A stretch of DNA of 62,916 nt, the filler included, from Folioceros fuciformis (lineage: Eukaryota), in NCBI GenBank assembly GCA_049999805.1. It is 11 parts of 11 records of this genome, joined end to end, with 100 filler letters (N's around TTAATTAATTAA, not from the genome) between each part and the next. Parts side by side here need not be neighbours in the genome. Positions count along the whole stretch, not along the records: positions 22,307 to 26,475 come from JBNGIO010006430.1; 10 more parts are not named here. One strand, written 5' to 3'. Made by a program: the position numbers and the translations under genes. This document shows, piece by piece, positions 3,901-56,749 of this stretch. A model generated the notes under the pieces. The model made no database searches. It had not been told where the DNA came from and saw only the letters and a list, made by a program, of their open reading frames with translations. The first letter of the stretch is position 1, and the number at the start of each line of letters is the position of its first letter.

Positions 3901-4423
3901 GCCCTGATAAAGAGAAATGGGAGCCTGCAATTCAGTCCGAGTATAACTCATTAATGGATAATAAAACATGGGTACTAGTGGACAGACCTAAACGCAGAAA
4001 AATCATAAGCTGTAAATGGGTCTTCAAGCGAAAATTGAAGGCAGATGGCAGTATCGAACGATACAAGGCTAGACTATGTGCCAGAGGGTTCACACAAGTA
4101 CCTGGTGTTGACTATTTTGACACTTTCTCACCTGTGGTAAAACTTCAATCACTAAGAGTTATATTCGCATTTGTGGCATTCTACTCCATGTTTATCCACC
4201 AGATGGATGTCAAGACTGCCTTCTTGCAAGGTAATCTTGAGGAGGATATTTATATGTCTCAACCACCTGGTTTTATCAAAAAGGGACAGGAGGACAAGGT
4301 GTGCAAGTTAGTTAAAGCCATCTACGGACTCAAGCAATCACCTAGAGCCTGGTACCAAAGGCTGGACATATTTCTCATTGCTATGGGATTCAAAAGAAGT
4401 GAATCGGACTCTAATGTGTATAT
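969..4423 (+). mobile_element. Ty1/copia gag-pol (Gag, zinc knuckle, PR, INT, start of RT), two in-frame stops, cut by contig end
   Basis: CNYCKKPGHWAKDC; WFWDSGASNHM; WHCHLGH...CEAC; VHSDVCGP, SDNGGEY, NGRAER; CKWVFK, YKARL, QMDVKTAFL, YGLKQSPRAW. INT precedes RT. One frame throughout, with stops at 2433-2435 and 2862-2864. Confidence 0.97.
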
Positions 4424-11659: not shown

Positions 11660-12580
11660 GAATTCCAGACCTTGCTCGACAGGAGTCTCATTGATCACAG
11701 GAGGACGTCGAGGGATCATCCACAGGCCGATGGCCTGGCAGAAAGGCTAGTGCAGACCTTCAAGGATGCACTAAGGAAATACTGCATTACTGTGGAGCCC
11801 AAGTGTTGGGATGAATTGCTCCCTTACATCGTGTTGGGGTACAGGGTCAATGTGCAGGCAGCTCTTGGAAGTTTCAGTCCATACTTTTTGTTATTCGGAC
11901 GCAACGCAGTGTTGCCGAATGTGGTGAAGGACACCTACTCCATCCCTGTTGACTGGAGCAAAGATGCAAATGTGTGCTTGGCACAGGTTCAAGCCAGAGC
12001 AGAAGTATTTCAAAGAATTCTTCCCATGGCTATGGATAATTTGGCTGTGGCCCAGCATCGGGACCAGCTGAGGTATGCTTATACGCGGGGGGGCTCGTGG
12101 AAGCCCAAAGGCCGCAAGTTTGCATCTGGAGATTACGTGTACTTGCAGCGCAGGCCTGCAAGCACGTTAGATGTCAGCATAGGAAGGCTTATCCTGCGAG
12201 TTGTCCAGGTTGGTGAGCAAGGTGTGGTTGAACTTGAAGGAAGAGATGGCAGAAGGTGCAAGGAACACATGAAGCACTTGGCTCCATGCCATTTGCCTGA
12301 TCTGGATACACGAACTGTGCCTCAGACCTGGACGCCACCAGCAGATTTGCCCTGTGAGGAGTGTGGACACACAACTGACGACGAATTCATGTTGCTATGT
12401 GACAGGTGTAACCGTGGTTACCATCTGTTTTGCCTCAAACCGGCACTGGACAGTGTTCCAGAAGAAGAATGGCTATGTGAGCACTGTAATGTGCTAAGTG
12501 TGAACGTGGCTCTTACAGAAGGTGATACTGAGGTTGTCTTAAATTCACATACGTTGGTACGTAGTTGTTTGTTTTCCTAG
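11660..12580 (+). mobile_element. Ty3/gypsy integrase C-terminal half fused to a PHD finger
   Basis: HPQADGLAERLVQT, WDELLP, SPYFLLFGR, FASGDYVYL, then CEECG...MLLCDRCNRGYHLFCLKPALDSVPEEEWLCEHC (C4HC3 with the conserved Trp). Confidence 0.93.
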
Positions 12581-17745: not shown

Positions 17746-20700
17746 ATGCCATGTTATTACAGTTGAGTTCCATTCATCCTTTCCTAACAGCAAGCAGTGT
17801 GTAGAGATAGACTTCCTACTGTCGGAATCAGAGGCCCAATCTACATCACAGAAGCGGCTAAGAAGTAGGCTTTCTGGTCTCTCTGTGTATAGCAGGCCAA
17901 GGTTAGGTGATCCTCCAAGGTAACGGAGGATCCTTTGTACTGTATGCGAGTGCGATGTGCCGTAATTTGACAGGAACTGGGATGTGACCCCAACTGAATG
18001 TGCCAGGTCGGGCCTTGTCCAATTCTTGAAATAAATGCATGCTCCCACTGCTGACCTATAAGGTACCTTCTCCATTTCTATCCGTTCTTGTTCAGTTGTT
18101 GGGCATTGTGCCAAGGTGAGCTTGTCACCAACTGCCATTGGAGTTACAGCTGGTTTTGCGTCTTGTAGCCTAAACCTGACTAGGACTTGATGTACAAATT
18201 GACCTTGATGTATGAAAATCGTGTGTCTAGACAGGTTTTGGATGATCTGAATCCCTAAGAAGAAGGTCAACTAACCCAGTCCGTCATGGAGAATTCAGCA
18301 GTTAGGAAACCTTTCACTTTCGACATGGATTGGGGACTGCTAGCAATGATAACTGCGTCATCTACATACAAAGCTAAGTAAACTACTCCATCCTTGTCAT
18401 GTAATATGTAGACATTGCTGTCTGCCTCACTCTGGACAAACCCGCAACTTTTTAAATATGTGTCAATTCGTTTGTACCATTCTGTTTTAACCCATATATT
18501 GTTTTTATTAACCTGCAGACTCTGTTGAGGTGCTTAGGGTCGACATACCCCTCTGGCTGCCGCATGAAGATAGTTTCTTCAAGGTTCCCGTTAAGGAACG
18601 CAGTCTTTACATCCATGTGTTGAAGGATGTAATCATGTTGCGCAGCTATGGCAAGTAAAGCTCTTATTGATGAAGCACGTACCACAGGTGAGAACGTCAC
18701 ATTGTAGTCAAGGCCCTTGACTTGGCTGTAGCCTCGTGCCACTAATCTTGCCTTAAATCGAGCCACAGCTCCTTCAGCATTAAGTTTACGCTTGGAGACC
18801 CATTTGCAGGTCACTGCTTTGCGTCCAGGTGGTAAGTCTTCCAGCACCCATGTTTTATTGTCCACAAGTGATTTGTATTCAAACTGAATTGCTTCCTTCC
18901 ACTTTTCTCCATTAGGTGAGTTGAGGGCAGCTTGGTAAGTGGGTGGATCTCCCATATCCAGAGGAGCACCATCATCCTGCACAAGGAAGGTTTGTGGTGA
19001 GTAGGGAGGCTGAATCCATTCGGATGGGGAAGTGGTGTGCCTCCTTGTTCCCAAATCCGTCCCTCTGCGCAATGTTACTGGTGGTGCACTGTGTATGAGA
19101 GGTTCCTCTATGACAGGGATCAAGTTGCCATGTGTGTCACCTTCGTGTCCAGCTGACCCCACCTCGTTTTGGCTTTCCGGGTCATCATCAGGAAACATGG
19201 TTGGTTTGTCACTTATCCCTGATGGTATTTGGGCTGACTGGTCAGGTGGTGACTGTACAGGTGTTGACTGGATAGGAGGGTATGAAAAAGATCTATAATC
19301 ATCTTCTTCATCTGTAGGTGGCTCGCTTGAGGAGGCTTCTTCTCTAAACCTATCTTCGGGTGCTGAGGTAAGAAGAAGCTTCTCATTAAATATGACACTA
19401 CGTGCATGTGTAGTGGTTCTTGTGTTGGGGTCAAAGAGCTTATAACCTTTTATCCCCTCTGTATACCCAATGAAGACGTACTTCCTTGCCTTATAGTCTA
19501 ATTTGACTTGCTGGTCTTCAGATAGATGTGCATAGGCAGGAGCTCCAAAAATTCGGAGATGATTAATACGTGGCTTGTGTGCTGTCCATCTTTCATATGA
19601 AGTGGCACCTTCAAACACACTAGTTGGCAGCCTATTGATAATATAGGCTGCTGTAGCCACAGCCTTGCCCCAATATCCTCTTGAAAGACCAGCTAGCTTG
19701 GGCATGGATTTGGCAGTCTCTTGGAGTCGGCGGTTGTTCAGCTCAGCAATCGGATTCTGCGATGATGTATACGGTACAGTAAGTTGGCGTGAGATCCCCA
19801 ACTCCTTGCAGTAATCTGAAAATGCGTCTGAACAATATTCGCCACCGTTGTCACTGCACAAGGTTTTTAGAAGAGCACCCGTCTGCCTTTGAGCAAAGCG
19901 GACATACTCTTGGAAGCAGCCAAGTGTCTGGCTTTTCAATTTGATGAGGTATACCACGACATACATGCTCCAGTCATCAATGAATGACAATATATATTTG
20001 GCGCCTCCAAAGGTGGATGTGGACATAGGCCCACAAAGGTCAGAATGAACAAGTTCTAATAACTTAGTTGCTCGTGTTGGGTTAGAATCTTTGTAGGGGA
20101 GCCTATGATGCTTCCCGAATACGCAGGCTTCGCAAAACTACTTGTCTGCAACTTGGAGCATAAATTTCTCTCGATAGAGGGTGTTGCTGGCCACCATAGC
20201 TTTCAGTTTGTCAAAGTTCACATGCCCCAGCCGGCAATGCCAGAGCATGGCATCATACTAATGTTGAGAGGCCTGGGTGACATGCACTTGGGGTGGCACA
20301 GCTTAGAAGAGAAATCTAACTTGTAGATGTCGTTGACTGGTGTCCTCGTAGCCCTAACTTTGCCCTTGAACTTGGGGTCTGAGATAACGCAAGTGGTGCC
20401 ACTAAAGGCTGTATCTAGGCCTGTCTCTATAGAGAATTTGAGCAGGGTAACTAAGTTTTTGACCATTGCAGGGACATGAAGTACATCTTGGAGGCAAAGG
20501 GTGGATTTGTTAGCTAATAGAAGAGGTACTGTCCCTATTCCTACAATAAGACTGCCTCTATCATCACCCATAAGCACAACCTTACCTGGTGGTATTTTTC
20601 TGTACTCAGAAAACGCTTGCCTGGAGTGACAGCAATGAGCAGAGGCTCCTGAATCGAGGAACCATGCATGCTGGTCTGCGGCTGTGGACACCAAATAGAC

Positions 20701-22034
20701 AGCTAACAACGTGTAGCCCTTTCGTTGTGCTAGGTGTGACTCAAGTGGAGGTGTTGACCTCCTAGGCTCATTAGCCTTTTTCTTTCGACACTCAGATTCA
20801 TAGTGTCCAGGCATGAGACACTAGTTACACGGCCCTTTTTTCTTTGGTGGTCCAGATGAAGGAAACTTCTTTTTGTAAGTGTTATTGCTGCTGTTGCTGT
20901 TGTTTGACTGCCAGGGCTATCTTGGTGGTGGTCTCCGAGGGCCCCTGTTAGTATAGAGCACCCTCTTGGAGGCCTCTCCTCTGTGGGAGTTGCCACCACG
21001 CCTGGTGGTATGTGTGGACTCCTCCTCGAGAAGAGCCCCAATTAGGTCAGAGAGAGTGATCCTTGCTGGTTGACCTGCAGTTGCAGCTGTAGATGCTACT
21101 CTCAAAGTAGAGCTATAATTACTTACAAATGTTCAGTAGCTGTCTGGCAATGACAGGGCCACTGAGGCTTGAAGCACGTCAATTTGGTGCCGCAGGATAC
21201 AAGTTTGGTTCGTAGTGCTCGAAACTTGATCACATGTTGTTCCACAGATTCATGTTCCTTCATTTGGTAGTTATAGAAGGCCCTTGTGGCCTGGACGATT
21301 GAACTTCCGTTTGTGACTTGGTAAACTTGAGTAAGTGAGTCCCATACCGCTTTTGTTGACTCAGCATCTTGTGTATGCTGCATCATTGAAGCATCCAGTG
21401 CTGACTGGATAACGCCAAGCGCCCTGAGGTCTAACTTGGCCCATGCCTCTTGGTCTGCAAGTGTTGCAGTTTGTGGTGGTTTGGGAGTTGCTCCGCTTAC
21501 AACACCCCACAAATCATTCTCTCGCAGTATGGTTTTGACTCTCATTGCCCAAATGTCAAACTGTGTGCCAGAAAATCTGTCTTTTTCTTTGAAATCTATC
21601 TTTAGATGGTGCACTGTTGTGTTATGAGTGACTGTATTTGGATGTGCCATTGTGGACACAACTTGTGCTGCATGTGCTGCCCTTGTGGCTTGTGCTAACC
21701 TGGCCGACCTAGTATTATATGCACTTGTAGCTGCTAGTGCCAATTGTGCAAGCTGAGCTAGTTGAAGTGCTGTTGGGGCAGGTACAGTTGTACTGGATTG
21801 TGCAGATGTCTGTTGTTCAGATGTATCTGACAGGTGCTGAGTATCTACAGTGAGGGGTTCGGACAAGTTTGTGCCCTCAGAGTCTTCCTCTGTGCCACGG
21901 CCAATACCTCTGCCAGTGCCGTGCCTTCTAGTGTTGCGGAAATTATTGTATCCATGATTGCCACGGTTTCCTCGTCCACCATGTGACATGCGCACTTTAG
22001 AAGGGATGAGCAGACTTCGGTGCAAGGGCTTCAA
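17746..22034 (-). mobile_element. Ty1/copia element B, degenerate gag-pol (Gag to start of RNase H)
   Basis: FKEKDRFSG (Gag), GHYESECRKKK, WFLDSGAS, SDNGGEY, CKWVSK/FKARL, HMDVKTAFL, YGLKQ, TRPDLAHSVG, FCDVDWAS; several stops and frameshifts. Confidence 0.96.
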
Positions 22035-22306: not shown

Positions 22307-22512
22307 GAGGACTTGGAAATCCTCTTCTTTCTAATCTTGCTCACATCCAATCTTGTTGCTATCCCAAGGCCTTCGCCGCAAGACCTAGCAATCGGGACCT
22401 GTGATTGAAGGAGGTTTTGTCCCGTTGCTTCATAGAACTTGGAGACGTTTCCAATCTCATCCCCCACTAGAGACCCTCCTGATTTCTCAGGTCGTTCGTT
22501 GGAGTTCGACAT
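22307..22512 (-). CDS. ThrRS: 5' end of the ThrRS ORF (joins 26475 through a 47-bp terminal overlap)
   Basis: 22307-22353 is identical to 26429-26475. MSNSNERPEK...IATRLDVSKIRKKRISKS reads in frame into the ThrRS ORF. An in-frame stop lies upstream of ATG 22512. Confidence 0.8.
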
Positions 22513-22738
22513 CTTCTTTCCAATCTTCTTCTTTTTTGCTAGGGGACTTGAGAAAGCACGTGAAGTGGTTTACCAACAATGAGGGGCCCAGTACCCTCGT
22601 TCGCCCTTGGAGACACAATTGAAGAAAGGTCCTTTCACTGCAACGCCGTTGGGAGCCACAGTTGGAGTGGCTCTATTCGAAGGAATGCACACCTAGGTCT
22701 ACCTGCAACTAAGATGCGGCTACCCTCATTAGGGTGCC

Positions 22739-22748
22739 TTTATATATA
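22739..22748 (-). promoter_or_regulatory. Candidate TATA box of the ThrRS gene
   Basis: TATATATAAA on the minus strand, ~230 nt upstream of ATG 22512. Confidence 0.5.
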
Positions 22749-23988
22749 GCCAAATCTTGTCAAAAGGTGGGCTGTCGATAAAGACTTGTGATAAGAATAG
22801 AAGGTACTTGTGATAAGAATAGAAGGTAGTTTTTAAGGAGCAAAGTAGGAGTGAAAAAAATACAAGGGAGTACTTGTCCTCTAGAAGCAATCTACCATGC
22901 GTGGGAAAATACATATTATTTGGTGGTTTAAAGATTTTTGTATTTAATATTTTAAAACCCTTTTATTTTAAAAGTTATTTTATTTTATTTTTTTAATTTC
23001 TCAAGACATTTTATACTTTAGTGAAGTGTCTTATAGACCCTTTCAGTCCAAATTTGAAGGCCTAACATTTTGTTTTTGTTTTGTTTTTCTTCAAATATTC
23101 CTTTTTTTCTTTTTCATTTTTTTTAGGGTTTGTTGATGTTTGTTGTGCCATTGCACCATCTCCTGCGAATTTTCTTTCCATATTGCCTCCAAATTTTATA
23201 CCAAAAAATCTTTGTGTTAGCATCTTGGGCCAAGTTGTCAAGGAAAAATTGCTTTCTTGCCTTCTAGACTAAGAAGGCGGGGGTATTTTCTATGATTGAA
23301 AAAGAGATGGAAAGTCCCATCCACTCCAAAGATTGGAGGAACAACCCCATTAGGGCCAAAGGCAAAAAGAGGTACTCTCCCCTGAAGAGGCTAGCCAATT
23401 GGATTAGCGGTTGATGGCTACTAGCCGAGAGCATGAGCGGGAGTTAAGAAGAGCACCTTAACGCCATGCCACCGCTGTAGGGCTTGTGTACGAGGAGTGC
23501 AAGGCGGAAGCGCTAAGGCGCAGTGCCACCAACACGCTACTGCACGACTCAACTTGTTGAGCTTGGTAAGCACGCTACGCAAACCAGGATGGATGTAGGA
23601 ATCGTTTCTACTTCATGTGAGACCTTGTTTCTTCGTCTTCTCTCTTCTCTCCCTCCCCCTCTAGGAGGAAAGCCCCGTGCAACTTGTGTCGTGTCGCCTT
23701 CACTTTGCCTTGGTTTGAAAATGAATCTCTCAAGTGAGAGGAGAGCTATGCAAATGTCGTGGTGCTAGCGAGAATGATCGTGCATGAGCAATGTAAGTTG
23801 CAAGGGCCTTTGTGAAGCCCTAAGCACACTAGAGCGAACGAGCAAGGCAAATGTAAAGCCATGGTCCGTTTGCTTTCACGCCTTGTGATTGGCGTGCAGC
23901 CCAATTTGTGTGGGGTGCGCACATAGCCTCGAGGGCTAGTACCTTTTCTTTCATAATGCTATTACAGCATGTGCAACAATTTGGTCCC

Positions 23989-24172
23989 ATGACGAAAATC
24001 CATGGTAGTGGACTAAATTAAAATGATTGTTGTGTTGCGTGTGTTGGATTGAATGGGCTAAGTTGTGGTAAAGGATCCATATGACGAAAATCCATGGTAG
24101 TGGGCTAAATTAAAATGATTGTTGTGTTGCGTGTGTTGGATTGAATGGGTTAAGTTGTGGTAAAGGATCCAT
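23989..24172 (+). repeat. 92-bp tandem duplication downstream of ThrRS
   Basis: ATGACGAAAATCCATGGTAGTGG...GGTAAAGGATCCAT at 23989 and 24081, two mismatches; followed by ATGAATGA-rich degenerate repeats to ~24370. Confidence 0.9.
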
Positions 24173-24399
24173 GTGAGCGTGGTGTGGTCATACCAAGCTG
24201 GGGATTTGGAAGTGAATGAATGACATTGAAAAAAATGAAATGGCATCATATATAAATGAATGGTATCATACATGAATGAATAAAATGGCATCCTAGATAA
24301 ATGCATAAAATAGCATCCTACATGAATGATGGCATCCTACATAAATGAATGGTAGTGAATAGAATCCAATGGCATTAACGTGCTTAGATGACGAGCACG

Positions 24400-26475
24400 T
24401 CAATGAAATGCCGCTGTTTCCGCTTTGAACTCCTCGAGCAATTCATGTAGGTTCTTCATACCATGCACCTTGTTATCACGGGTGCGAACATTGACCTGCT
24501 CAGTGCTTTCTTCCCTCTCACCGACCACTAGAATGTAGTTGAATTGGGCTAGTTGCGCTTCCCGCACCTTCTTATCAATAGACCGATATGAGATATCCAT
24601 TTCGACATAAAATCCTGCTTCGTGGATGTGGTTGCGGACTCTCCTCGCGTACTCCACGAACTTCCTTGATATAGAGCACACAATGGCCTGACGAGGGCTG
24701 ACCCAAAAAGGCCACTTGCCAACGTAGTTCTCAAGCAGAATTGCAAGCATTCGTTCCACAGATCCAAGAATTGCCCTATGGATCATGACGGGCCTTTCCT
24801 TTCTAGACTTGTCATCTGTGGAGTAGGTCAAGTTGAATCGCATGGGCAATTGAAAGTCTAGTTGAATTGTTGCACACTGAAATTTCCTTTTCAGCGCATC
24901 AAGCACTGTGATATCGATCTTGGGCCCATAGAATGCACCGTCCCCCTCATTCCTCTCCCATGGCTTGTTTAGACCGTTGAGGGCATCCGCCAAAGCCTTT
25001 TCTGCCCGCTCCCATACCGCAAGCTCTCCAAGGTATTTCTCGGGTCTTGTTGACAGTTGAAGTTCGAATGTGAAGCCGAAAATGTCGTAGGCATATTGCA
25101 AGAAGTCTAGAACTCCCTTCACTTCGTCGAGTATTTGGGACTCCATGCAAAAGATATGTGCATCGTCCTGCTGAAACCTCCTAACTCTTGTTAGACCTGT
25201 CAACGCTCCACTCTTCTCGTTGCGATGGAGCACTCCAAAGTCGGCTAGACGCAATGGCAACTCCCTATAAGATCGTACCCTATGGCCAAACATGAGGCAA
25301 TGACCTGGGCAATTCATTGGTTTCAACCCATATTCTTGCTTTTCGACCTCACAAAGAAACATGTTCTCCTTATAGTTGGCAGCATGGCCAGATGTTTCAA
25401 AGAGCTTCATATCAAACATATTTGGAGTTATGACCTCCTCGTAGCCACGCTTTCGGTACTCTGCGCGAATAAACTCCATGAGCTTATTGTATATCCTAGT
25501 TCCATGAGGCAAAAAGAAAGCACTACCTGGGCTTAGTTCATGGAAGTGGAACAATTCCTGCTTCACACCAAGGATTCTGTGATCCCGTTTCTTTGCCTCT
25601 TCGATGGCCTCAAGGTACTCCTTCAGCTTCTTTTGATCAGGATATGAGATCCCATAAACGCGTTGCAGCGTCTCTCGGTCTGCTCTACCTCTCCAGTAGG
25701 ATGCGGATGCCTTCGTTAGGGCAAAAGCCTTTGCAAATGCTGTGGTGGGCACGTGAGGCCCTCGGCAAAGGTCAACCAAAGGCCCGCACCTATACACCGT
25801 GATGGTCTTATCCTCTGGCAATTCTTGAATGATTTCAACCTTGAACGGGTTATTAAAGAAGATGTCGAGTGCTTGTTGTCTCGTCACTTCTATGCGCTCG
25901 AAAGCTTGCTTTTCTTGAACAGCTTTGTCTACTTGGGACTTGATCTCCTCAAAGCGCTCTTCGTTTAGGGTGACGTCCCCATAGAAGGCATCATAGTAGA
26001 AACCCTCGGTTCTTGTTGTGCAGGGTCCAATACATAATTTGCAGTCGTACACAATCTCCAATGCCTGCCCTAGGATGTGAGCACTAGAATGCCAAAACGT
26101 GTCTCGTCCTTCTTTGTCTTCGAAAGTAAATATTTTAAGCTGACAATCTCCCTCCAAGGGTCTTCCTAGGTCCCAAAGGACACCATCAACCTCCGAAATG
26201 AGAGCGGCCGTTGCCAATTGTTTGGAAATTTGCTTGGCAATGTCGAGGGGCGAAGTTCGCCATTTAACCCCATCTCTCACGGAACCATCACGAAGTGTGA
26301 TTTTGATCGGGTCCCCAGCAATTTCATTCAACCGTTCTTGGGCAATACGCTGAATCTCCTCAAATTTGGAGATCCTCTTCTTTTGACTTTCGGTTAACGC
26401 TCCTGCTGATTTACTAAACCCTAAACCCGAGGACTTGGAAATCCTCTTCTTTCTAATCTTGCTCACATCCAATCT
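24400..26475 (-). CDS. ThrRS: Cytosolic-type threonyl-tRNA synthetase, intronless and uninterrupted (~744 aa when joined to 22354-22512)
   Basis: TGS domain; editing HSSAH and DLCRGPH; catalytic KPMNCPGHC, RNEKSGALTGLTRVRRFQQDDAHIFC, GAFYGPKID, QLDFQLP, HRAILGSVERM; anticodon domain KKVREAQLAQFNYILVVG. Confidence 0.97.
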   Translation of the reverse strand, partial: RLDVSKIRKKRISKSSGLGFSKSAGALTESQKKRISKFEEIQRIAQERLNEIAGDPIKITLRDGSVRDGVKWRTSPLDIAKQISKQLATAALISEVDGVLWDLGRPLEGDCQLKIFTFEDKEGRDTFWHSSAHILGQALEIVYDCKLCIGPCTTRTEGFYYDAFYGDVTLNEERFEEIKSQVDKAVQEKQAFERIEVTRQQALDIFFNNPFKVEIIQELPEDKTITVYRCGPLVDLCRGPHVPTTAFAKAFALTKASASYWRGRADRETLQRVYGISYPDQKKLKEYLEAIEEAKKRDHRILGVKQELFHFHELSPGSAFFLPHGTRIYNKLMEFIRAEYRKRGYEEVITPNMFDMKLFETSGHAANYKENMFLCEVEKQEYGLKPMNCPGHCLMFGHRVRSYRELPLRLADFGVLHRNEKSGALTGLTRVRRFQQDDAHIFCMESQILDEVKGVLDFLQYAYDIFGFTFELQLSTRPEKYLGELAVWERAEKALADALNGLNKPWERNEGDGAFYGPKIDITVLDALKRKFQCATIQLDFQLPMRFNLTYSTDDKSRKERPVMIHRAILGSVERMLAILLENYVGKWPFWVSPRQAIVCSISRKFVEYARRVRNHIHEAGFYVEMDISYRSIDKKVREAQLAQFNYILVVGEREESTEQVNVRTRDNKVHGMKNLHELLEEFKAETAAFH

Positions 26476-26575: not shown

Positions 26576-29500
26576 AAGTGTTCTTGGTGGATGTTGATTG
26601 TATGGTCTGCATGATTAAAATGGAATTGGACTCCTAATGAAAAAGAGAGTTCTCCTAAATCACTCATCTCGAACCTCGTAAGCAAGATCCTCTTAACCTT
26701 ATCCATCAAGGCAGCTGACGTACTAAACAGGAAATTGTCGTCCACATAGATAGAAAGTATTATGAAATCTCGAACTTCACATAGTATGTAGACACTATTG
26801 TCAGCATCAAGGCAAGTAAAACCTAGCTCAATGAGAACTTGGTGAAAACATTCATTCCATGCCCTGGAAGACTGTTTTAGACCATACAATGTTTATAGAA
26901 GTTTCAGAACCTTGTCTGGATTCTTTATGTAGCCTTCAGGCTGACACATGTAGATGTCCTCTTCTAGACGACCATGCAAAAAAGCAGTTTTAACATCTAA
27001 CTGGTGGACGGTAAGATTGAAATGGGCAGCTATAGCAAGGAGAATTCTGATAGAGGTGGATTTTACAACAGGCGCAAAAGTCTCAGTGTAGTCAAGGCCA
27101 GGTACCTCACTGTAGCCCTTGGCTACCAGTCTTGCTTTGTACCTACTTACACTCCCGTCAGTGTTCAACTTTTTCCTGAATACCCACTTGCAAGCAACAG
27201 GCTTGCGACCAGGAGGTAAATCAACTTCTTCCCAAGTATGATTCTGTAGGAGGGAAGAATGTTCTGAGTCTATAGCCTGCTTCCAATGTTCGGCCTCAGG
27301 GCCTTCAACTACCTCTCGATAGGTAGCAGGTTCACTAAGAGAAGCAGCTGCATTGAGAGCAAAGTCTGAGGAGGAGGGTTCTGTAGTGACCATATCGACA
27401 ACATAGTCTGGCTTCCATTCATCTATTGGACGACGAGCTCTTGTTGAGCGATGAAGAGGAGGGTCGACGGGCTCATCTTCTTCAATGGCAAGACCAGCAA
27501 GAGTGGGTGAGAGCATTGGTTCAGCAACTTCATCATCAACAAATGCAGGAACTTCAATGGGATGAGTAGCTTCTGGAACAATTGAATCTTCGGATGGGTG
27601 GTTGTGCACAACAGATGAAGGTGGCTGTGCAGACTGTGCTGGTGCTGGCTCGGGCTGCTGGATGGAGCTCCCCCTTGAACCCAGAGGCTCCTCATCGTCG
27701 TCATAGGTGGTCAAGGAAAGAGAATCAAGGGGCTCATCAATTTGAACACCATAAATCGAGGAAGAACCCTCAGTAGGTGTATGCACCAGTTGCAGGTGGC
27801 GTTGAAGAAGGGCATTCTCGTTAAAAACTACACTTCGTGAAATAGTCAGTGAGCGAGGATCAGGATCAAAAAGCGTATAGCCCTTCACATCATCGGAATA
27901 GCCAACAAAGATACGTCGATGTGCCTTGGGATCTAGCTTGGTACACAACTTAGAGGGAATAAAAGCATATGCAGGTGAGCCAAACACACATAGGTGAGAA
28001 ATGCGAGGTTTCCTGCCTGTCCATCTTTCATATGGTGTGATTGATCCCAACTCCTTCGTAGGTAGCCGATTCTAGATGTAGTTGGTAGCCATGAGGGCCT
28101 CCGCCCAGTAACCACGAATGAGGCCAGCAAAAAGTAAACTTGCCAAGGTGGCCTCCTGCAGTGTTCTATTCTTCCGCTCAGCAAAGGAGTTTTGTGTTGG
28201 AGCGTAGGGCACAGTGAATTGATGATGAATCCCTTCATCTTCACAAAAATCCTGGAAAGCTGGGCTGGTATACTCACCACTATTGTCTGTACGGAGAATC
28301 TTCACACGGGCACCAGTCTACCTTTGTGCATACCTCACAAGAGATTGGAAGCACTCAAGGGCTTCACTCTTGTGCTTGAGCAAATATACGGTGCAATACC
28401 GGCTCCACTCGTCTACAAATGTGATAAAATATGATGCACCTCCAAAAGAAGCCGTCGATATGGGGCCGCAGATGTCACTGTGAATTGTTTCAAGGACTGC
28501 CCTTGCACGGGTAAGGTGCTTGTCCCGGTAAGGCAAGGAATGTGCCTTGCTCATTGCACATGAGTCACAGAAAGGGCTGGACTCTGGGATGAAGTTGAGG
28601 GTATCTCTAAAACTACCACTATGAGCTAGAGACAACAATTTTTGAAAATTAACATGGCCAAGGCGACAGTGCCAGAGATGCATGGTGGGTTTCGCCTGGA
28701 GGGCATGTGCAGATGGAATGGTAGGAGGTTCCAAAGTTAAGACATCAAGCATGTACAAGTCATTATACGGGTGGCCAGAAAACAACTTATGATTGGAGTT
28801 GGGGCTAAATATATGACAACCTGTGTGGTCGAAGCAAAAACTTGACACAAGTGTTCTTGGGTGAGTTTGTAAACAGACATGAGGTTCTTCATCATAGCTG
28901 GGACATAGAGTACTCCTGATAGGGTGAGACTCCCATGCCCAGGTAGTTGTATCATGACACAACCTGTGCCCTTTATTGATAAACCACTATCATCACCTAA
29001 CAGCACAAATCGCTTATCATTCTTAGAGGGAACAAAAGATGAGAAGGCACGCCTGTCTAGACATATGTGACTTGTAGCACCTGAATCTAGAAACCACTTA
29101 TCTTGCTAGACAGTGACAGAAGTCACACAAACAGCAAGTATTGAAGGCAGCTTGGCTCTGCCCACGGCTACATTGGACTCTGGAAGAGCTCACTCCTTTC
29201 TTGGTTCACCATTGCTCTTCTTTCTGCAGTCCCTCTCATAATGCCCTGGTATTTTACACTAGTTGCATCTAAAAGTTTTCTTCTGCAAGTTGGGCAGCCT
29301 TGATGAAGGTGGATTGAACGAGCCTCTTCCACGACCTTGTCCACGATATCCTCCACGCCCACATGAGGCAGACAACACCCGATTGCTGTTGTTGCTTGTA
29401 GAGCCTCTATTCTTGTAAAGAGTCCTTGACCTTTCTTCCGCCAAGAGTGCTCCAAGGACTTCCACCAAGGTAACATTAGGCGTGCTCCCAGCTGTTGCTG

Positions 29501-30660
29501 CCTGAACTGCTGCTTGAATAGTTAGTTGCATTTTGTGAACTCACCAACTGTCCGCAGGCGTCTGGCAGAGAAGTAAGAAGGCTTTTAGCAGCCTAAACTT
29601 CTGTTAAAACAGTGCCACAGCAAGCCAAGTTAGCCCTCAAGGTCCTAAACTTGTGTATATAGCCCTCGATGGGCTCATAGTCCTTCATCCACAAGTTGAA
29701 AAAATCACGGTATGTATGCACCATCGAGGCTGAGCTTTTGTCTTCATAGATGAGTTTGAATGCCTTCCACACAGCATTAGAGGTGGCTGCACCTATTGTA
29801 TGAGGCATCACCAGGGAGGCAATCAGTATTGATCGAGCCCTCCTATCCTTCCGCTGCCAAGCTAGGACATTTTCTAGTGGGGATGCAGGACAGGCTTCTG
29901 AGCCGTCTACAACGCCCATCAACTCATGCTCATCAAAGATCTGCGTTACCCTCATGGACCAGATAGCATAATCGGTCCCATTAAACCTGTCTTTGTCCCT
30001 GAACTCTATTTTGAGAGGAACGACACTAGGAGTTGCTGTGAGGATAGGGGCAAGAGTGCCACTTGATATATTTGCTAAGATAGTGTTACTCACCAACCTG
30101 AACTGCGACCTATGCTCAAGAAGCAACCTAGACTGCACTGCTTGAGGAGAGAAATCAAAAGGTGAGTAATCCACAAACTCGATGTCAGAATCGTGAAAAA
30201 GAAAAGGCAAATCAGCAGTGTTGTCCCCCTTAGGTTGCATATGACATGGATTCTCAGAGTATCGAAGAACAATGCCCAGACATTGAGACCTGTTTGTCAA
30301 GACTCAAAGCAGAAAGATGATCCTGAAAAATCTCATGAACAATCTAGATAGATTCAGAAAGGCAGTCAATCAACTCCTTTTGAGCGTGCAGGCGTTGCAG
30401 ATTGGTGACAGGGAGGTGGACCAAAGATCTGGCAGTGACGCGGGTTGAAGATAGTGTTCTTCGCGTTCTCGCAAAGGGGCTAGCAATTAGGTCGAATCTC
30501 AAACGGTTGTGCGCTCGTAGAACAACTAGCTCTCAGGCCATGGCGCTGAACAATGGAAGGCGGTGTTGGGCGTGATGTGCACTTTTCCTCCTCTCTGCAC
30601 TCGGGGCAAAGCAGGCCGGAAACGGCAACTGGACGAGGCGGGATTAAGGTCAACAGACGA
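26576..30660 (-). mobile_element. Ty1/copia element C, degenerate gag-pol with leader remnant
   Basis: FRDKDRFNG (Gag), WHCRLGH...CDSC, HSDICGP, TDNSGEY, CKWVFR/YKARL, HQLDVKTAFL, YGLKQ, IYVDD; many stops and frameshifts. Confidence 0.95.
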
Positions 30661-30664
30661 CTAT

Positions 30665-31905
30665 ACAATGCATGCAAATTATTGAAAGCGCTTTATGGAC
30701 TCAAACAAAGCGCTATGGAGTGGTACTCTAAGTTAGATGAAGCCTTAGAGGCCTTAGGGTTACCAAACTAGACTCCAATAGCAATATCTATATTAGAAAA
30801 TAAGATGGTTGTTTTATTCTACTTGCTGTATATGTAGACGATATTGTTCTAATGTCTAACTCCAAAGCCATGGTAAAAGAGACTAGGTCAATGCTTTCGA
30901 AGCATTTTGCTATGACCACTTGCAGGGATTTATCTTATTGTTTACGCATTCAAATAGTTAGACACAGAGAGTCTAGAAATATATTTATACATCAATCCAA
31001 ATATATTCAAGAAGTTTTAACTAAGTACAAGATGCAAGACTCTAATCCTATATCCACACTAATGGAAGTTAACCTTAAGCTGATTAAGGCAGATCGAGAC
31101 TCAACTCCATATCTTGACACGAATGGGGTACCCTACTCTTTAGCAACTGTTGAAAGCCTTATGTACTTAATGGTCTGCACTAGACCAGACCTTGTATTTC
31201 CAGTGGGAGCACTCTCTCAGTTTTTATCATCTCCCACACAAGAACATTGGAAGGCTATTAAGCGCATATTTAGATATCTTAGATCTACTTCGGATATGGG
31301 ACTCCTATACCAGTCCTCTACTAAGCAAGATGAGCACCTTCAGCTTCAAGGATATAGTGGTGCTGATTGGGTAGGGGACAAGGACGTTAGAAAGAGCATA
31401 AGCAGCTATGTGTATTTGGTCGAAGGCACAGCCACGAGTTGGAGCAGCAAGCGGTAACAGATGATTGCTCTAAGCTCCACGGAAGCAGAATATTGCTCCT
31501 TGACACATGCTTGCAAAGAAGGACTATGGCAACTCCTACAACTATCGGAATTAGCAGAAGCTCAACATCTTCCAAGATCCCTCTACTGTGACAACCAGGG
31601 AGCTATCTCGCTTACCTATGGTGCTAAGTACCATGCGCGTACCAAACACATAGAGGTACAATTTCATTTTATCCAGAAAGTAGTTTAGGACGGAAAATTT
31701 GGAGTCCTATATTGGCCGACAAAACTAATGACAGTTGATATCCTTACCAAAGCCCTCAGCTCGGCTAAATAAACACCAGCAGCACTGCGCATCAATGGGC
31801 TTAAGAAGACTATCTCAAGCTTTCTTTAGCAACAATTAATACTCATGTATTCTAAATATAAATCCTAAGTCTAATATTAAGTCACTAAGTGAGAGTGTTA
31901 CAATA
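30665..31905 (+). mobile_element. Copia RT/RNase H 3' fragment with PPT and start of 3' LTR
   Basis: LYGLKQSAMEW, YVDD, CTRPDL, GYSGADWVG, ALSSTEAEY, YCDNQGAI, HARTKHIEV; purine-rich AAGTGAGAG followed by TGTTAC at 31896. Confidence 0.9.
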
Positions 31906-35242: not shown

Positions 35243-37865
35243 NNNNNNNNNNNNNNNNNNNNNNNNNNNNNNNNNNNNNNNNNNNNTTAATTAATTAANN
35301 NNNNNNNNNNNNNNNNNNNNNNNNNNNNNNNNNNNNNNNNNNTGTATTTTGTGCGATATGCCTGCATGGTCGTGTTTACAAAATTTACAGTTCAAGACTT
35401 CCATACAGACTCGGGAAAACATTCCCAATTTCTCAGACCTGATTTCTATGTTGATCATAGAGGAGAAAAACCTAGGCGAGGAATCATCCTCTAAGCCTAA
35501 GGAAAACTCTGAGCAGGCCTTCTACTCTGGCAGAGGCAGAGGTAGAGCCCAAGGTGGCAGAGGGCAAAGAGGTGGCAGAGGTCGGAATCCCTACCAAAAT
35601 CAACAACAGAATCAGGAGTCCCAGTACAAGAGTACACGTGGAAGAGGAGAAAATTCTCGAGGCTGGGGGAGTCAAAGAGGACGTGGAAATCAACAACAAA
35701 ATGATGCAAATGCAGACAATAGTGGTTGCTGGACTTGTGGTAGGTTAGACCACTTCGAAAGAGACTGTCCAAGGAGAAATCAAGGCAACAGGAGGCAGCA
35801 GAACAATTATGCCTCTAGCAGCAGTCAGAATGACTCAGAAAACTTGTTTGTCATGCAGCATATGCTTAACTCTGTGTCTGCTAATGGATCCAACAATGGT
35901 GAGATTGTGTGGTATGTGGACTCAGGAGCTTCGAACCACATGACATGCCATGGGGAGTGGTTCAAAGAAATGCAAGTGCTTGACAAACCTGGATATGTAG
36001 AAACTGGAGATGACACAACACATGCAATTGTGCATACAGGAACTGTACCTCTGAAGATGCAGGATGGCAAAGTGAAGTGCCTGGTAGATGTTCTTCACGT
36101 ACCCAACATCACAAAGAACTTGGTGTCAGTTGGGCAGATGGTTGAGCAAGGACTGCAGGTTAGATTTACACCTGCAGGACTCTTTGTTGAAGAGTGCAAG
36201 AAAGGCGGTCGCCTGATTGCTCAAGGACAGAAGGTTGGACGGATGTTCACCTTGAACGTGGAGGTTCCTAAGCTGAAGTCAGCCATGTTTGCGAAGGGTA
36301 CAAGGGTAGTGACAGACCTAGAGATGTGGCACAAACGCATTGGACATGTAAATGTGCAGAAGTTGAAGTCCATGCAGCATCAGAAGGTTGTCACAGGCAT
36401 ACCCAAGCTTACAGAAAATGGACTGCAAGGTATATGTGAAGCATGTCAACTTGGGAAACAGCCTAGGAATGCGTTCCCCCATGACAAACATGTCAGCAGA
36501 TGTGTGTTGGATGTTGTGCATTCAGATGTATGGGGTCCTACACAGACTGCATCAATCGGAGGCTGCAAGTACTATGTGACCTTCATTGACGACCACACAA
36601 GGAAGGTGTGGGTCTATTTCATGAAAGAAAAAAGTGAAGTGATCACTCATTTTCATACTTTCAAGGCGATGGTTGAGAAGCAGACAGGTAGGCACATCAA
36701 ATGCCTAAGATCTGATGGAGGGGGAGAGTACTTCTCCAGAGAGTTCAGCAAATTCTTATCAGAACAGGGCATTCAACGGCAATACTCATGTCGTTATACG
36801 CCACAACAAAATGGAGTTGCAGAGCGCAAGAACAGGCACATAGAAGAAGTGGCGAGAGCCTTGATGACAGAGAAGAAGATGCCTCACTACTATTGGGCTG
36901 AAGCTGTAAGCACAGCAGTGTACATCATGAACAGAACTTCCACAGCAGCGGTGCACAGTGTAACACCGGAGGAGAAGTTCACAGGGAAGAAACCTGACTT
37001 GTCACACTTAAAGGTATTTGGTTGCATTGCTTATGTCCATATTCCGGATGAGTTGCGGACTAAGCTTGATCCAAAAGCAGAAAAGTGTGTCTTCATTGGG
37101 TATTATGTTACACAGAAAGGATACAGGTGCTACAATCCCAGTACACGGACTATGAGAGTAAGCAGAGACGTAGTCTTTGATGAAATGGGTAGCTGGTACT
37201 TTGAAGTACAAGGAAGTAGTGTAGCTGATGTGCTTGAAACTGAGGTAACAAGCAATGCAGGTCAACAATCACAAGTGTTGAGTGGACCGCAAGCGTCATC
37301 AAACTCGACAAATGTTCAGAATCCATGGAGTGGCAGGTTGCGAGGTAGTGTGAGTCCTACGAGCTCCACAGCTGTGTCTCGCAAAGGGAAGGAAAAAGTC
37401 CAGGATTCAAAGATACCAGACCTAAGTGCAGGTGCGGATGATTCAAGCGACTCTGAGCAGAGCTTGGATGAGGAATTCGGTGTACCGAAAATCGAAACAC
37501 CTAGTGCAAAAGAGGTTCAATCAGCCCCTGGAAATGGTTCAATCCCACGGAGATCTGGAAGGCAGAAGGTTCCAATACAGCGGTTGACCTATGATAGCTA
37601 TGTAGCTAGGCACCATGCCTATATGGCAAAGGTTGTACAGGATGTGGAACCAAGAAGCTTTGAAGAAGCTATTGGAGACACAAAGTGGGAACATGCTATG
37701 GATGAAGAAATGAATGCGTTAAATCAGAATGCAACATGGGACCTAGTACAACTACCTGAAGGCAAGAAACCAATAGGTTGCAAATGGGTGTACAAGGTCA
37801 AACACAACGCAGATGGTAGTATCAACAGGTACAAGGCAAGGCTTGTGGCCAAGGGATATGCCCAG

Positions 37866-40800
37866 TATGGAGTGATTTCTTGCACCCAAGAATCACCCAA
37901 GGGGCCACACATTCCCCTATTGTCGTTGAAGTCCTATGGTTCGCTCCCAAGGGAGTGAACTAGTGCCAAGGAACGCTAGCTACCGCACTTCTACCTATCA
38001 GCCGGTCTATAGGTCTGTCCATACACTCCAAACAAAAGGACTAGAAGCCTAGCCTACCTCCTAAGTCAGCTCACCCAACTCACACTCTTGTACTTCAGTC
38101 CTCCAGCCCTTCTTGATTCCCACTTCAGCCACTTTCTCCTTGACCTCAGCGCTTCAAGATTCCCACTTTAGTCCCTTCCTCTTCACTTCAGTCCTCCAAG
38201 ATCCCCACTTCAACTCTTCCTCTCTTTTCTTCAGCTCCCCCCCCTGGAAATTAGACACAATGGCTTCACTTCTTGCAGTCTTCAAGCATAGTGGGGATCT
38301 AGGACGGGATAGCCCCCTTCACTTCAGCCAACCTGCGAATCATGTAGCCCTTGCGGATCCGGCCACACGGATCTTGACAGCCCCGGGATCCCCACGCTCC
38401 CCTAGTGGCAAGGGAATCAGGACTTTGGGTCGACCTCAACCGACTCAGCGCCCTAAGCCAGGAGTTCTACCCACAAAACCCGGGGACCTCACACCATAGA
38501 CCGCCCACTCTCAATGGCAGGCCTCTCCTCTTATACCCCTAACCCTCATCTCTCTCTCTGACTTAAACCATCCTACATCCGGTTCTGACCTAAACCTAAC
38601 CTAGGTCTGACCTAACCCTAACCTAGGTCTACATCCGGTTCTGACCTAAACCTAACCTAGGTCTGACCTAACCCTAACCTAGGTCTGACATAAACCTTAC
38701 CTAGGTCTGACCTAAACCTGACCTAGGTATGACCTCAACCTGACCTAGGTCTGACCTCAACCTGACCTAGGTCTGACCTCAACCTAATCTAGGCCTGACC
38801 TAGACCTAATCCCAACCAAGAACCCTAACTTTAACCTACCCCTGCTTCTAATTGCCCCTTGACACCGTTAGCTGCCCTTTCATCAAAATCCCCAAAATCA
38901 TCAACCCCTCACAATTACCACACATCAGGGGTGCTTCTCTTTCCCCCTTCTTCCCTCCCGGGTTAGATCATCTCCCCTCTTCTGATTACCCTGCCTCCTT
39001 CCCCAGAGTCTCCCACCTTCAGGTCCTTCCCTCCTGGCTACGGCTGGCCAAGATTCCTGGCCCTAGGCTAGGCCTTCGGCCTACAAGCAACCAGGGTTGC
39101 TACTCATGGATGGAAAGCCGAGTGTCAATTATGTCCTTGGCGGACCACCCTCCAAGCTGCTGGACTGATGCCCTTGAGCGGATAGCCCAGGGCGTCGCGT
39201 CCTGGCATGGCACACACCATCCATCATCGCCGCAAGTAGCATCCGGCCCTCCGCCTGCGGTAGCGAGTCAGTTCCAACCATCTAACCGCGGATGGCAAGC
39301 CGTATGCAAATTACGGCCCCTGGCTGGCATGGTGCCTTCGATGCCTGGGTGGGGCAGCCTACGCCCTAAAATTCCCTGGCAGTAGTCTACAACCAGTGTT
39401 CCAGTGTCAGGCTGTCATCCTTGGAGTGTCCCTCGGGACACTCCCTTGTCTTTCCCCTAGGCAGCCGCCTATGGGCTATTAGGCCTACCGGCTATCCAAC
39501 CAGCCATTTGGCCAGTCTTCGGCTGCTAGATCCGGTCGAGACCATTCTGTCCAACTTGAAGGAACGACCATGCAGAATCGTCGATGGGGTTAGTTGATCT
39601 GCACTGCACCTGGTTTGACCGGGATTTGGGACAAGCCACTATCCTTGGTTTGCAGTGCACTAAGTGCAAGTCCGTCCGCACCTGGTGCTCTCGGATCCAA
39701 CCGCTTATCCTCAGCCATCGTCTGGATTCAGCCATCACGCCGTGACTCCCCTAGCCCTGCTTCCAGCCAAACTGCAACTATCCCAGCTGCTCAGTCTCCG
39801 GCTGATCGGGACTGGATCCAGTCAGCTCGCCTGGTTGCCGAGTCGCCTGCCGTTTTCCTGATTCAGCTAGCTGGCCAGCCGACCAGACTTGACTGGCCAG
39901 CCTGCCTTTGCCTAGATCTGGCCAGGCGACCAGCCTGTAGGCCGCCTACTCCTCGCTTGCACTTGGAACGGGCTGGGTTGCTGACCAGACTCCTCACCGC
40001 CAACTCCTCACCGCCATCTCCAACCAGCAACCCCCTTGTTCGGCTAGCCGTCACGGCTCATCTCGGTTGCTCACGGCCGAGCATTCGCCTAGCTAAGACA
40101 GCTAGCCAGGAAGATAGCCCAACCCCCCTTAGATCCACTTTGTCCCGCTTGCCCAGCCAGCTAGCCAGAGACCCCTAGCTGCTAGGTCGTCGCCGGCTGG
40201 ATACTCCTGCAGCTTGTCTTGGCTGCTCCAGCCTCCAGACGTCCCTGGCCCAGCAGTCCTCCGACGGGGGATGCTTGCCAAGCCTCAAGGGTCTCCCCTA
40301 CAATCCCGATTTCGGGCTCGCCTCCTTGTTGCCGGTCGTCGGCCGGGCCGTCTGCTGAGACCTGGCTAGGCGACCATTCCCCCCCGCGTCCGGTCTGCTC
40401 GGCTCGCCTACCTTCATCCTAATCTACTCCTGTGGTTCGGCCTGGCTTCTAAATCATCTGACCCCAGCCGGCCACCATTCCGGCCCCTCCTGGCTGTTTC
40501 TGGGCCGGGCGTTCGACTACCTAAGGCAGCCAACCAGGCCACTATGCTCAGCCGAGACCAGCCACGCCGCCTAGCATTTTGCCGTGAACCTACCCTGACC
40601 AGTTCCTACCAGCCAGATGGCATGCTTGCTCCTCTAGCTGCCGGGCCGCCCCAGCCAGCGGATCCGCACCCCGATCGGCCCCTGACTGCCTGGCTGCCGC
40701 TCAGCAGCTGGTCACTGCTAAGCCAGCCCCCCTGCTACTCGCCTTGCCGATCCAACTCGGCGCCCGCCCGCTCGGAGCGTCGGTCACTTGGAGGCCACCG

Positions 40801-50900: not shown

Positions 50901-52560
50901 TCAATTGCAAAGGTCTCGAGCTGTTCTGCACGTGTCGCACAAATGGAAACCTTGACTGTTTTCCAAATTGACATGCAGAACACACATGACCAAGATCAGC
51001 ATACTTGAACTTGGGCAATCCTTCCACCACGCTTTTCTGTTGCATAGATTTCAGCTTCGCTATGTTCACATGCCCAATCCTCTTATGCCATATTTCAACA
51101 TCACGTATGGCACCTGCATCATTTGCAAACATTGCTGCATTTAGCTCTGGAATGGATGCATCCAGAGTGAACATCCGTCCATTCCTACTACCTTTAGCAA
51201 TCAGTTTGCGCCCTCTGTTATATTCTTCAATAAAGCATCCATCTTTATTCAGTCGAACCTACAGATTTTGTTCAGCCATTTGTCCAACAGACAACAGGTT
51301 CTTCGTAATGGTTGGAACATGCAACACATCTTGCAGACTCTTCTGCTAACCATTCGGCATCCTAAGAGGAACAATTCCTCTGTGCTTTATGTCATGTTGT
51401 GTGTCATCTCTTGAACACACATGGCCATGGGGACCTACATCTATCTTGTTAAACCACTCGCCATGCGGAGTCATGTGGTTTGATGCTCCTGAATCAATGT
51501 ACCATCTCTCATCATTATGCCCATCCTGTTCAGAGAGATGTTGCATGACAAACAACCTATCCTGGTCATTTCCAGCATTACTAGAGGAGGCATAGTTCCC
51601 ATGCTGCCTTCCTTTTCCTCTCATGTCTGCTTGCTGCTTATAGCAGTCCTTAGCAATATGACCAACCTTACCACAGTAGTAACACTCCTTGTCTCTATTG
51701 GAATGGTCATGAGATTGAAAAGAACCATCTCTTCCTCTTGTGGCTCTACCTGCGCCTCTAAAACTTCCAGATTCTCTCTGGCCTTGTGCATTTCCTCCAC
51801 ACCAATTGTCTTGCTGATTTTGCGTGTTCCAAGCATCACCCCGTCCTCGGAATGAACCACGACCTCTGTGGCCTCTCCCAAGCTGGTTAGAAAATAAAAC
51901 AGTGTCTCTCCCTTGAGATATACCTGAACCTGTGTTCAGACCAAGCTTAACTTCCTCATGCAGCAACAAAGCAACCAATTCATCCCAACTTGGGAACTCA
52001 ACTCTCACAGAGATTGATGTGTCAAAGGACTTGTACTCCTTGCCAAGTCCGTTCAGAGTAACTGCAACCATGTCATCTTCTGTCACACTGCACCAATTGT
52101 AGCAAGCTGATCAGCTATGGTCTTCACCTCTGTCGTATACACGAGTATGGATCTGCTACCTCGTGACAAGTTGTTGAACTGCTGCTTCAACTGGATTTTC
52201 CTAGCATGTGTGACATTTCCATAGTTCCTCATGAGTATGTCCGATGCATCCTTCGGAGACTCACATCCCGTGATCTATATGACCATAGCATCTAAAATGC
52301 TTGAGGAGAGCCAGTGTAACACTTTACATGCTCTCTCAATCCAATGCTTGTGAGCAGTCTTTTGCTCCTGTGATGGAGTACGATCCATCTCTGGTTCACT
52401 CTCATCACCTGAGCAGAGGTCCAAATAGCCTCTACCTACGAAGAAGTTCTTCATCCTGAACTTCCACAAAGCAAAATTCTTATTATCCAACTTCTCTCCC
52501 ACCACCTGAGAGATATTGTCTGATCCCTGCACATTAGCCATGATTCATGCTCCTTTAGTG
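47979..52560 (-). mobile_element. Near full-length Ty1/copia element E (same family as D): gag-pol with several stops, PPT, 3' LTR 47979-48239
   Basis: Gag from 52541, CYYCGKVGHIAKDC, WYIDSGASNH, INT, RT (YVDD), RNase H (ADIFTK); PPT GAGGGGGAG then TGTTAG...TTCAACA. Shares NYASSS, LFVMQH and NPWSGRLR with D. Confidence 0.96.
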
Positions 52561-52612
52561 GCAGGGCTAACTTATTTTGCTCCATTTGTGGTGAGCAAGG
52601 CCACACCAAGAC

Positions 52613-56205: not shown

Positions 56206-56398
56206 TGTTGGAAGTAACCCCGTTAGGGTTAGCTTCTTATAAACGTTGCAGCTATTAGGTGGTTTAATAGCTAATTATGAAAGGTCATGACTCTTGGAGA
56301 GTTTTTTGTATATAAGCACTTTATTATTCATAAATAAAATAACATGAGAACAACTTTGAGTATGTTAGATCCTCAAATGTTTCACATGGTATCAGAGC
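56206..56398 (+). repeat. 5' LTR (56206-56386, 181 bp) plus tRNA-Met PBS of another copia nested in element F
   Basis: TGTTGG...TTCACA then TGGTATCAGAGC; interrupts the post-integrase region of F. Confidence 0.9.
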
Positions 56399-56749
56399 TC
56401 TTAAGGTCTTGATATCTATGTCTGCAAGAATCTTATCTATGTCTGCAAGAATCTTAGTCTAGTACTGTATATGCATGGTCGAAGGAAAAATGAGGACACA
56501 AAATCCATTAGTTACAGCTAGTGGCTCCTGGACCTTATGTCACCATTCTTCCTCCCACCCTGCGGTACAACATCAATACTGGGCTACGATTCACAACTTG
56601 TATGACAATAATTAAAGCGAAAAATTCCGCTGTGCAAATCTGCTTGCAANNNNNNNNNNNNNNNNNNNNNNNNNNNNNNNNNNNNNNNNNNNNTTAATTA
56701 ATTAANNNNNNNNNNNNNNNNNNNNNNNNNNNNNNNNNNNNNNNNNNNN

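Follow-up and report, generated by a model that had tools for sequence, protein, structure and literature searches.

Why should a contig that carries a single gene, for a threonyl-tRNA synthetase (ThrRS), end with the same letters with which it begins? The question is raised by JBNGIO010006430.1 (here C6430), a contig of the 87-Mb assembly GCA_049999805.1 of Folioceros fuciformis. The contig occupies positions 22307-26475 of the window, a stretch of 62,916 nt in which separate contigs are strung together with N-linkers and neighbours are not genomic neighbours. An earlier note on this DNA took it to be either the unit of a tandem array or an extrachromosomal circular DNA (eccDNA). The note overlooked the origin of the gene itself, which is an intronless retrocopy of a parent gene with 19 introns on another contig, C6289. 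The explanation that we consider probable is that of a retrogene with a new start and promoter, which forms a small chromosomal head-to-tail array in transposon-rich DNA, has decaying end copies, was methylated in the sample, and is selected for another stage.

In the parent, 792 codons are spread over 20 exons separated by 19 GT-AG introns. All 19 introns are missing from the copy, and the exon joins are exact. Homology between the two extends ~235 nt upstream of the parent ATG, to parent position 8461 (L025), and ends inside the reach of the parent's mRNA-like contig (~8490 in L025, assuming no intron there). On the 3' side it ends 62 nt past the parent stop, 257 nt inside the mRNA-like contig. 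Homology is confined, in other words, to transcribed sequence. The 30 kb around the parent (L025-L027) match C6430 in gene sequence only, and because these surroundings match none of the spacer, the copy is placed at a locus other than the parent's. The gene and its borders are made up as follows.

22307-22353, minus strand: assembler overlap, left copy; inside the joined frame, at codons 54-69, and also the first 47 nt of the pseudogene contig C4181
22354-22512, minus strand: 5' coding part of the retrocopy, 53 codons; the ATG at 22512 is the parent's internal Ile codon 50
22513-22874, minus strand: decayed first 49 codons and 5' leader of the parent, now the presumptive leader and promoter of the copy; parent ATG deleted, frame broken
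22738-22751, minus strand: TATA-like box, in the counterpart of the parent's transcribed leader, from which it differs at 6 of 8 positions
24234-24399, minus strand: remnant of the parent 3' untranslated region (62 nt, 24338-24399) with no poly(A), then a minisatellite of five ~20-25-bp units
24400-26475, minus strand: body of the retrocopy, an intronless ThrRS of cytosolic/mitochondrial type; all 19 parent introns absent, core identical to the parent in 620 of 658 amino acids
26429-26475, minus strand: assembler overlap, right copy, identical to the left one

When the ends are joined, the ATG at 22512 is fused in frame to 24400-26475 (minus strand), giving 744 amino acids without an internal stop, as the earlier note had it. 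The joined protein has the Pfam domains TGS, tRNA_SAD, tRNA-synt_2b, and HGTP_anticodon. No other frame of at least 100 amino acids with a start codon is present in C6430, and the longest stop-to-stop frame in its non-coding part has 92, which agrees with the note's remark that no replication or transposase gene is visible. Ranked by identity, the best of the 120 database matches listed are land-plant ThrRS, with identities of no more than 76%. In a tree of 18 proteins, 16 of them chosen from these 120, parent and copy are sisters with a support of 100/100, and the pair forms a long branch that falls outside the sequences sampled from mosses, liverworts, lycophytes, algae, and seed plants. A horizontal or contaminant origin of the copy was rejected, since parent and copy are sister sequences in the tree. 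Also rejected as a further ThrRS copy was an intronless PF00587 match on C1401 (L087 2039-3835, minus strand), which has no DNA match to C6430 and encodes another synthetase, a 598-residue class II enzyme with a long N-terminal leader, which we take to resemble an organellar seryl-tRNA synthetase.

Over the 658 core codons, copy and parent differ by a nonsynonymous divergence (dN) of 0.028 and a synonymous divergence (dS) of 0.329, a dN/dS of 0.085. The coding differences between the two number 209. Since its split from the pseudogene on C3966, the copy has gained 8 nonsynonymous and 12 synonymous changes, against 30 and 13 in the pseudogene (Fisher p 0.03; copy against neutrality, p 0.0002). 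Under simulated neutral change, the frame was still open in 2 of 500 cases at 8% change and in none of 500 at 16%. Another study's run (X3), from an organism B with another species label, covers the unit in 29 of 30 bins at ~98% identity. In the 7 listed of its 11 records, 37 of 2634 letters differ and the listed indels all fall outside the coding frame. Differences from the window amount to 8 of 500 letters in the 5' part and 24 of 1754 in the body; the 5' part is as close to organism B as the body is, which indicates that it belongs with the intact body and not with C4181. Judged by these counts, the retrocopy is an intact frame kept by purifying selection.

The beginning of the gene is not that of the parent. 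In the copy the parent ATG has been deleted and the reading frame is interrupted upstream of 22512, so that the parent's first 49 codons are lost from the copy's frame, which opens at the former Ile codon 50. The TATA-like box that the earlier note saw upstream was located at 22738-22751; its 6 of 8 positions changed relative to the parent leader compare with a background of ~24% (p 0.003, in a test chosen post hoc). The sole upstream ATG in 22513-22800 is at 22729, and 22512 would therefore be the first ATG after a transcription start 30 nt downstream of the box. The box is probably used as a promoter element of the copy. Both it and the ATG are new, made by mutation of the parent's coding and 5'-leader sequence, and not inherited.

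How, then, are the identical ends to be understood? The identity is exact over 47 nt, at a spacing of 4122, as first reported, and among the 15 window blocks between N runs (9 twelve-base linkers excluded) only C6430 has such a terminal overlap. Exactly 47 terminal bases are also common to the pairs C3048/C4378 and C6430/C4181, so that 47 nt is the assembler's overlap (word size), which bears out the note's view of it as a k-mer overlap. Three occurrences of a 34-nt core of the 47-mer are found in the 87-Mb assembly, two at the ends of C6430 and one at the start of C4181. Beyond the 47-mer, C4181 matches the following 370 bases of the gene at 96% identity and has acquired 2 stops; over 418 nt the private changes number 16 in C4181 (3.8%) and none in the window copy. 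The 47-mer has one assembled entry and two exits, and since it also starts the broken copy, C6430 is a loop cut at a branch point and not a clean circle. The order across the join is that of the gene: the two ends map side by side on exon 1 of the parent, and a 2962-nt intronless, mRNA-like contig with the parent's letters (record 24 of run X5) spans the join, as does a 1083-nt assembled contig of the DNA run X1. This colinearity with exon 1 and with the parent's mRNA-like contig makes the join the natural gene order. For scans of short-read assemblies the case carries a caution: a word-size overlap at the contig ends is the sign of a loop in the assembly graph and should not be taken for a circle.

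Copy number can be approached through contig depth in the DNA run X1. The unit has depths of 21.9-38.8 (8 listed contigs) and the parent-letter contigs 7.55-12.1 (8 contigs); after correction for words shared with relatives the unit exceeds the parent 2.0-3.9-fold, a ratio of contig depths and not of copy numbers. The highest value, 38.8, is at 25357-25663, where the shared-word fraction is 0. The abundant repeat in the spacer (see below) has a summed depth above 5000. These values hint at ~2-4 near-identical units, a number above one and well below that of the abundant repeat. In run X3, which comprises 8.8 million letters, no parent-type piece is listed; this would agree with more copies in organism B, but missing cover is no proof, and it is not used as evidence.

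Of the 274 changed places in run X4, which is from the same sample as X1, 270 are G>A or C>T, as expected of bisulfite data. The 8 listed of its 104 records have 287 changes, to be compared with 292 CHH, 54 CHG and 87 CG cytosines (H, any base but G), and a 1250-nt intronless record has 172 changes against 177 CHH. These counts suggest CG and CHG methylation across the unit in the sampled material. Such methylation across a gene body is the pattern typical of transposons. The gaps in X4 cover over the 5' part and the spacer are not read as low methylation, as fully methylated DNA would also be near or below the 85% likeness filter. None of the runs recorded as RNA, as far as their assembled contigs go, contains C6430. 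X5, from another sample and RNA by guess, contains the spliced form of the parent and no long stretch specific to the copy, and is not used as expression evidence; nor are runs X5-X7, which contain 2-3% of the words, about as many as expected from the parent alone (3.5%), used on expression or presence. One low-depth X5 contig (4.47), at 25118-25150, has two indels also found in C3966, and may reflect transcription of C3966 or DNA in the run.

Between leader and 3' end, the contig holds repeat remnants and spacer.

22975-23256, plus strand: repeat remnant in three pieces, 77-80% identical, internally deleted; from a dispersed ~1.3-kb non-coding family with short inverted ends, fuller versions of which are at the ends of C3048 and C4378
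23279-23385, no strand assigned: end fragment, ~107 bp, of a very abundant repeat, with an imperfect target duplication of ~8 bp; the empty site is in C3048
23388-24233, no strand assigned: spacer DNA, found elsewhere only beside decayed relatives of the unit (C3048, 94%; C3966, 88-95%)

The spacer has a 92-bp tandem duplication at 23989-24172, which is single in X3. Seven copies of the abundant repeat (L014-L019, L022) are 88-98% identical, with one end fixed and the other variably truncated; by this pattern it is LINE-like (long interspersed nuclear element) and a candidate source of reverse transcriptase. The ~1.3-kb family (L067 and others; C6294:344380-345790) gave 59 matches among 40 scored candidates, and has 7-bp inverted ends and a hairpin-like 3' end. 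No Rfam match was found in C6430 at E 0.1.

Partial copies of the unit are present in four other contigs: broken relatives in C4181 and C3966, and parts of the spacer in C3048 and C4378, all of them arcs of the same loop. The decayed relatives run into other DNA, including transposons, in contigs of up to 22.8 kb. In C3966 the gene is followed by spacer, and the spacer by part of the repeat found ahead of the gene's 5' end, from which it follows that the head-to-tail arrangement predates the C3966 copy. C3966 begins (L022 1-120) in a satellite with TTTAGGG words, presumably a telomere-like motif, and this older broken copy may be subtelomeric. In the relative on C4378, an element with 330-bp inverted repeats (96.7%) is inserted in the 107-bp repeat end (L024 542-2171).

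The history that we consider probable has the following steps, of which the first ones are shown by the sequences. Spliced mRNA of the parent on C6289 was copied into DNA, as the exact loss of 19 introns indicates, the reverse transcription probably by a LINE-type enzyme. The copy lost the parent's start and first 49 codons, and acquired an ATG where the parent has codon 50 and, in the old leader, a TATA-like box; its intact 744-codon frame was retained under purifying selection, and broken relatives exist elsewhere. The unit may then have been duplicated head-to-tail and homogenised by unequal crossing-over or conversion, while end copies would decay and be interrupted by transposon insertions. 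The assembler, with a word size of 47, would have collapsed ~2-4 copies to one loop, cut at the branch into C4181. The array would be CG and CHG methylated in the sample and probably quiet there; it would be selected for expression at a particular stage or in a certain cell type, and might there add to cytosolic Thr-tRNA charging.

Several points weigh against this reading. The homology at the 3' end runs into the minisatellite without an A-run, and no flanking target-site duplication of a retro-insertion is among the repeats found in the contig; at a dS of 0.33, both marks may have decayed. Over the N-terminal 86 codons evolution is close to neutral (dN/dS 0.68-0.94), so that selection may not extend to the new ATG itself. 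The four runs compared are all assembled contigs, neither raw nor long reads, and X1 may be the source sample of the window. The junction sought by the earlier note is spanned in X1 by a 1083-nt contig, with 72 letters on the short side, which is itself assembled, with near-identical variants merged, and not proof from a single molecule; the depth ratio is qualified above in the same way. The methylation reading draws on 8 of 104 records, takes X4 as bisulfite data, and uses a strand chosen post hoc, and the 85% filter would drop less methylated molecules (CG-only methylation gives 17% change). A function in a restricted stage is our inference. Finally, the upstream part of one copy was found by none of the DNA, pattern, and protein searches of the assembly, and the assembly does not show which upstream part belongs to which body.

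The last point is the basis of an alternative that we rate as unlikely though not negligible, in which each segment holds one complete gene. The order would be an unassembled upstream part, the intact body, the spacer, the 5' part, and then C4181. The loop would be an artefact of two tandem copies sharing the 47-mer, and the 744-residue join a chimera; the gene would still be a selected retrogene, in a segment that may be duplicated elsewhere. The 47-mer is indeed a branch point with C4181, one upstream contig is absent from the assembly under any model, and the join is seen in no single molecule. A link of ~0.9 kb from C3048 or C4378 to the 47-mer would be shorter than any contig examined (shortest, 2580 bp). 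However, the intact body has a depth of about twice the parent's or more even where no words are shared (25357-25663), and the 5' part is open over its 53 codons and as near to organism B as the body, without the private decay of C4181.

A more elaborate form of the retrogene array, which seems to us quite unlikely, is a heterochromatic ampliconic array, founded by an essential housekeeping gene, with a TATA box and ATG of its own made from the parent's leader and coding sequence, silenced in ordinary tissue through methylation of transposon type and selected for one stage (e.g., male gametes or sporophyte), possibly on a sex or accessory chromosome, with a copy number that varies between species. 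If true, it would be a parallel in seed-free plants to the ampliconic germline retrogenes of animals.

Very unlikely, in our judgement, is a retrocopy carried inside a mobile element, either a long terminal repeat (LTR) element with collapsed repeats or a rolling-circle element, the loop being the element unit and the copies dispersed or in tandem. The spacer is a mosaic of repeat remnants, the four further contigs hold partial copies, there is a purine tract at 23632-23667, and LTR-borne plant retrogenes are known (PMC8764390). However, both ends of the remnant of the ~1.3-kb repeat fall within the spacer, with the gene lying outside it, and the rest of the spacer matches the unit's own relatives only, not a dispersed family. 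A search with the primer-binding-site pattern of the copia element in C3048 stayed at chance level, with 3 matches at 3 mismatches where 2.82 were expected (no search was made for other tRNA primer types), and no transposon coding remnant is found in C6430.

A free, heritable 4.1-kb extrachromosomal circle, the broken copies being old chromosomal re-insertions, is highly improbable. It would account for a loop closed in natural gene order and for broken relatives that are all arcs of the same circle, and gene-bearing circles exist in plants (bioRxiv 2020.04.09.032896). However, C6430 has no replication or tethering gene, its apparent copy number is few-fold only, its methylation pattern is transposon-like, decayed relatives are chromosomal, and the unit recurs at ~98% identity in material with another species label, a persistence more readily explained for chromosomal DNA. 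Of the two forms that the earlier note left open, the head-to-tail repeat is the likely one, given the natural order of the join and the hint from depth, and the free circle is unlikely; small circles shed from the array could exist as by-products. Hardly credible, lastly, is the note's suggestion, compatible with any structure, that copies are kept as protection against a microbial ThrRS inhibitor such as borrelidin: the copy is under purifying selection and seemingly multi-copy, and raised ThrRS gives borrelidin resistance in E. coli and Chinese hamster ovary cells, borrelidin being herbicidal as well (PMC4389257), but the 14 borrelidin contacts checked, of 18 in that source, are identical between copy and parent, the named pocket loops contain none of the 38 core differences (one, at human-numbered 609, is in motif 3), the apparent amplification is few-fold, the CG and CHG methylation pattern of the gene body speaks against constitutive over-expression, and no tie links Folioceros fuciformis to an inhibitor producer.

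The probable small chromosomal array of a retrogene belongs to a known class, that of plant retrogenes later duplicated in tandem, and is not new in kind. In Thlaspi arvense, SKP1 and other retrogenes likewise lost introns relative to a parent at another locus, and a younger tandem duplication followed, as is proposed for the C6430 unit (PMC8764390). C6430 differs from these in that its gene is a normally single-copy synthetase, with 19 introns gone, apparently near-identical units, and a new ATG and TATA box. The tRNA ligase gene RLG1a of Mimulus guttatus, which has three copies in the trip+ variant and 250-300 in high+, with expression not proportional to copy number in the latter, is a tRNA-handling housekeeping gene amplified in a chromosomal array unlinked to the single-copy locus, as is proposed for C6430 (bioRxiv 392183). 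The C6430 unit resembles the three-copy variant. RLG1a, however, is an RNA ligase rather than a synthetase, the text of that paper nowhere contains the word 'retro', and fitness and segregation were measured in Mimulus. The EPSPS eccDNA of Amaranthus palmeri would be alike in being an amplification of the gene for an inhibitor-target enzyme, but this replicon is ~400 kb long, is expressed, and has 59 genes, including some for replication and tethering, whereas C6430 has one gene on 4.1 kb and apparently few copies (bioRxiv 2020.04.09.032896), and has none of the replication, recombination, and tethering functions. Arabidopsis At5g26830-type ThrRS shares the enzyme family and the four Pfam domains; Arabidopsis has one full gene of this type and two fragments, while the C6430 copy is full-length in its catalytic part, intronless, and without the parent's first 49 codons and open upstream leader (PMC8770321, PMC7564348). 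No report of a ThrRS retrocopy or of a tandem aminoacyl-tRNA synthetase retrogene like that of C6430 was found in the literature, although subscription literature was mostly outside the search and absence is unproven. The case is a clean and testable one: a usually single-copy gene with a selected intronless second form, a new ATG and TATA-like box, apparently several copies, dated broken relatives, and a type of methylation that usually goes with silencing. Knowledge of its site of expression would explain how selection is maintained on an essential gene's retrocopy that is methylated.

Two observations concern the parent. In frame 5' of its ATG are 70 open codons (L025 8226-8435, C6289, minus strand), which start with CTG, are rich in Ser and Arg, and lie within the reach of the mRNA-like contig. 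Speculatively, this frame may encode a mitochondrial leader read from a non-ATG start; in Arabidopsis, the dual location of ThrRS depends on the use of two starts (PMC8770321). The retrocopy is without this leader and, equally speculatively, would be cytosolic only. Just upstream of the parent, on the opposite strand, is a repeat-containing frame that looks by eye like a PPR gene (L025 8700-10000 and L026 1-590, C6289).

The other contigs of the window are mostly copia-type pieces (969-4421, 18452-22034, 26893-31457, 35349-37958, and 49747-58199). Of 14 other window frames scanned, 13 had a Pfam match, with retrotransposon domains in 12 of these. A short gapped contig holds a 302-residue frame with a PHD finger at 11672-12580 (plus strand).

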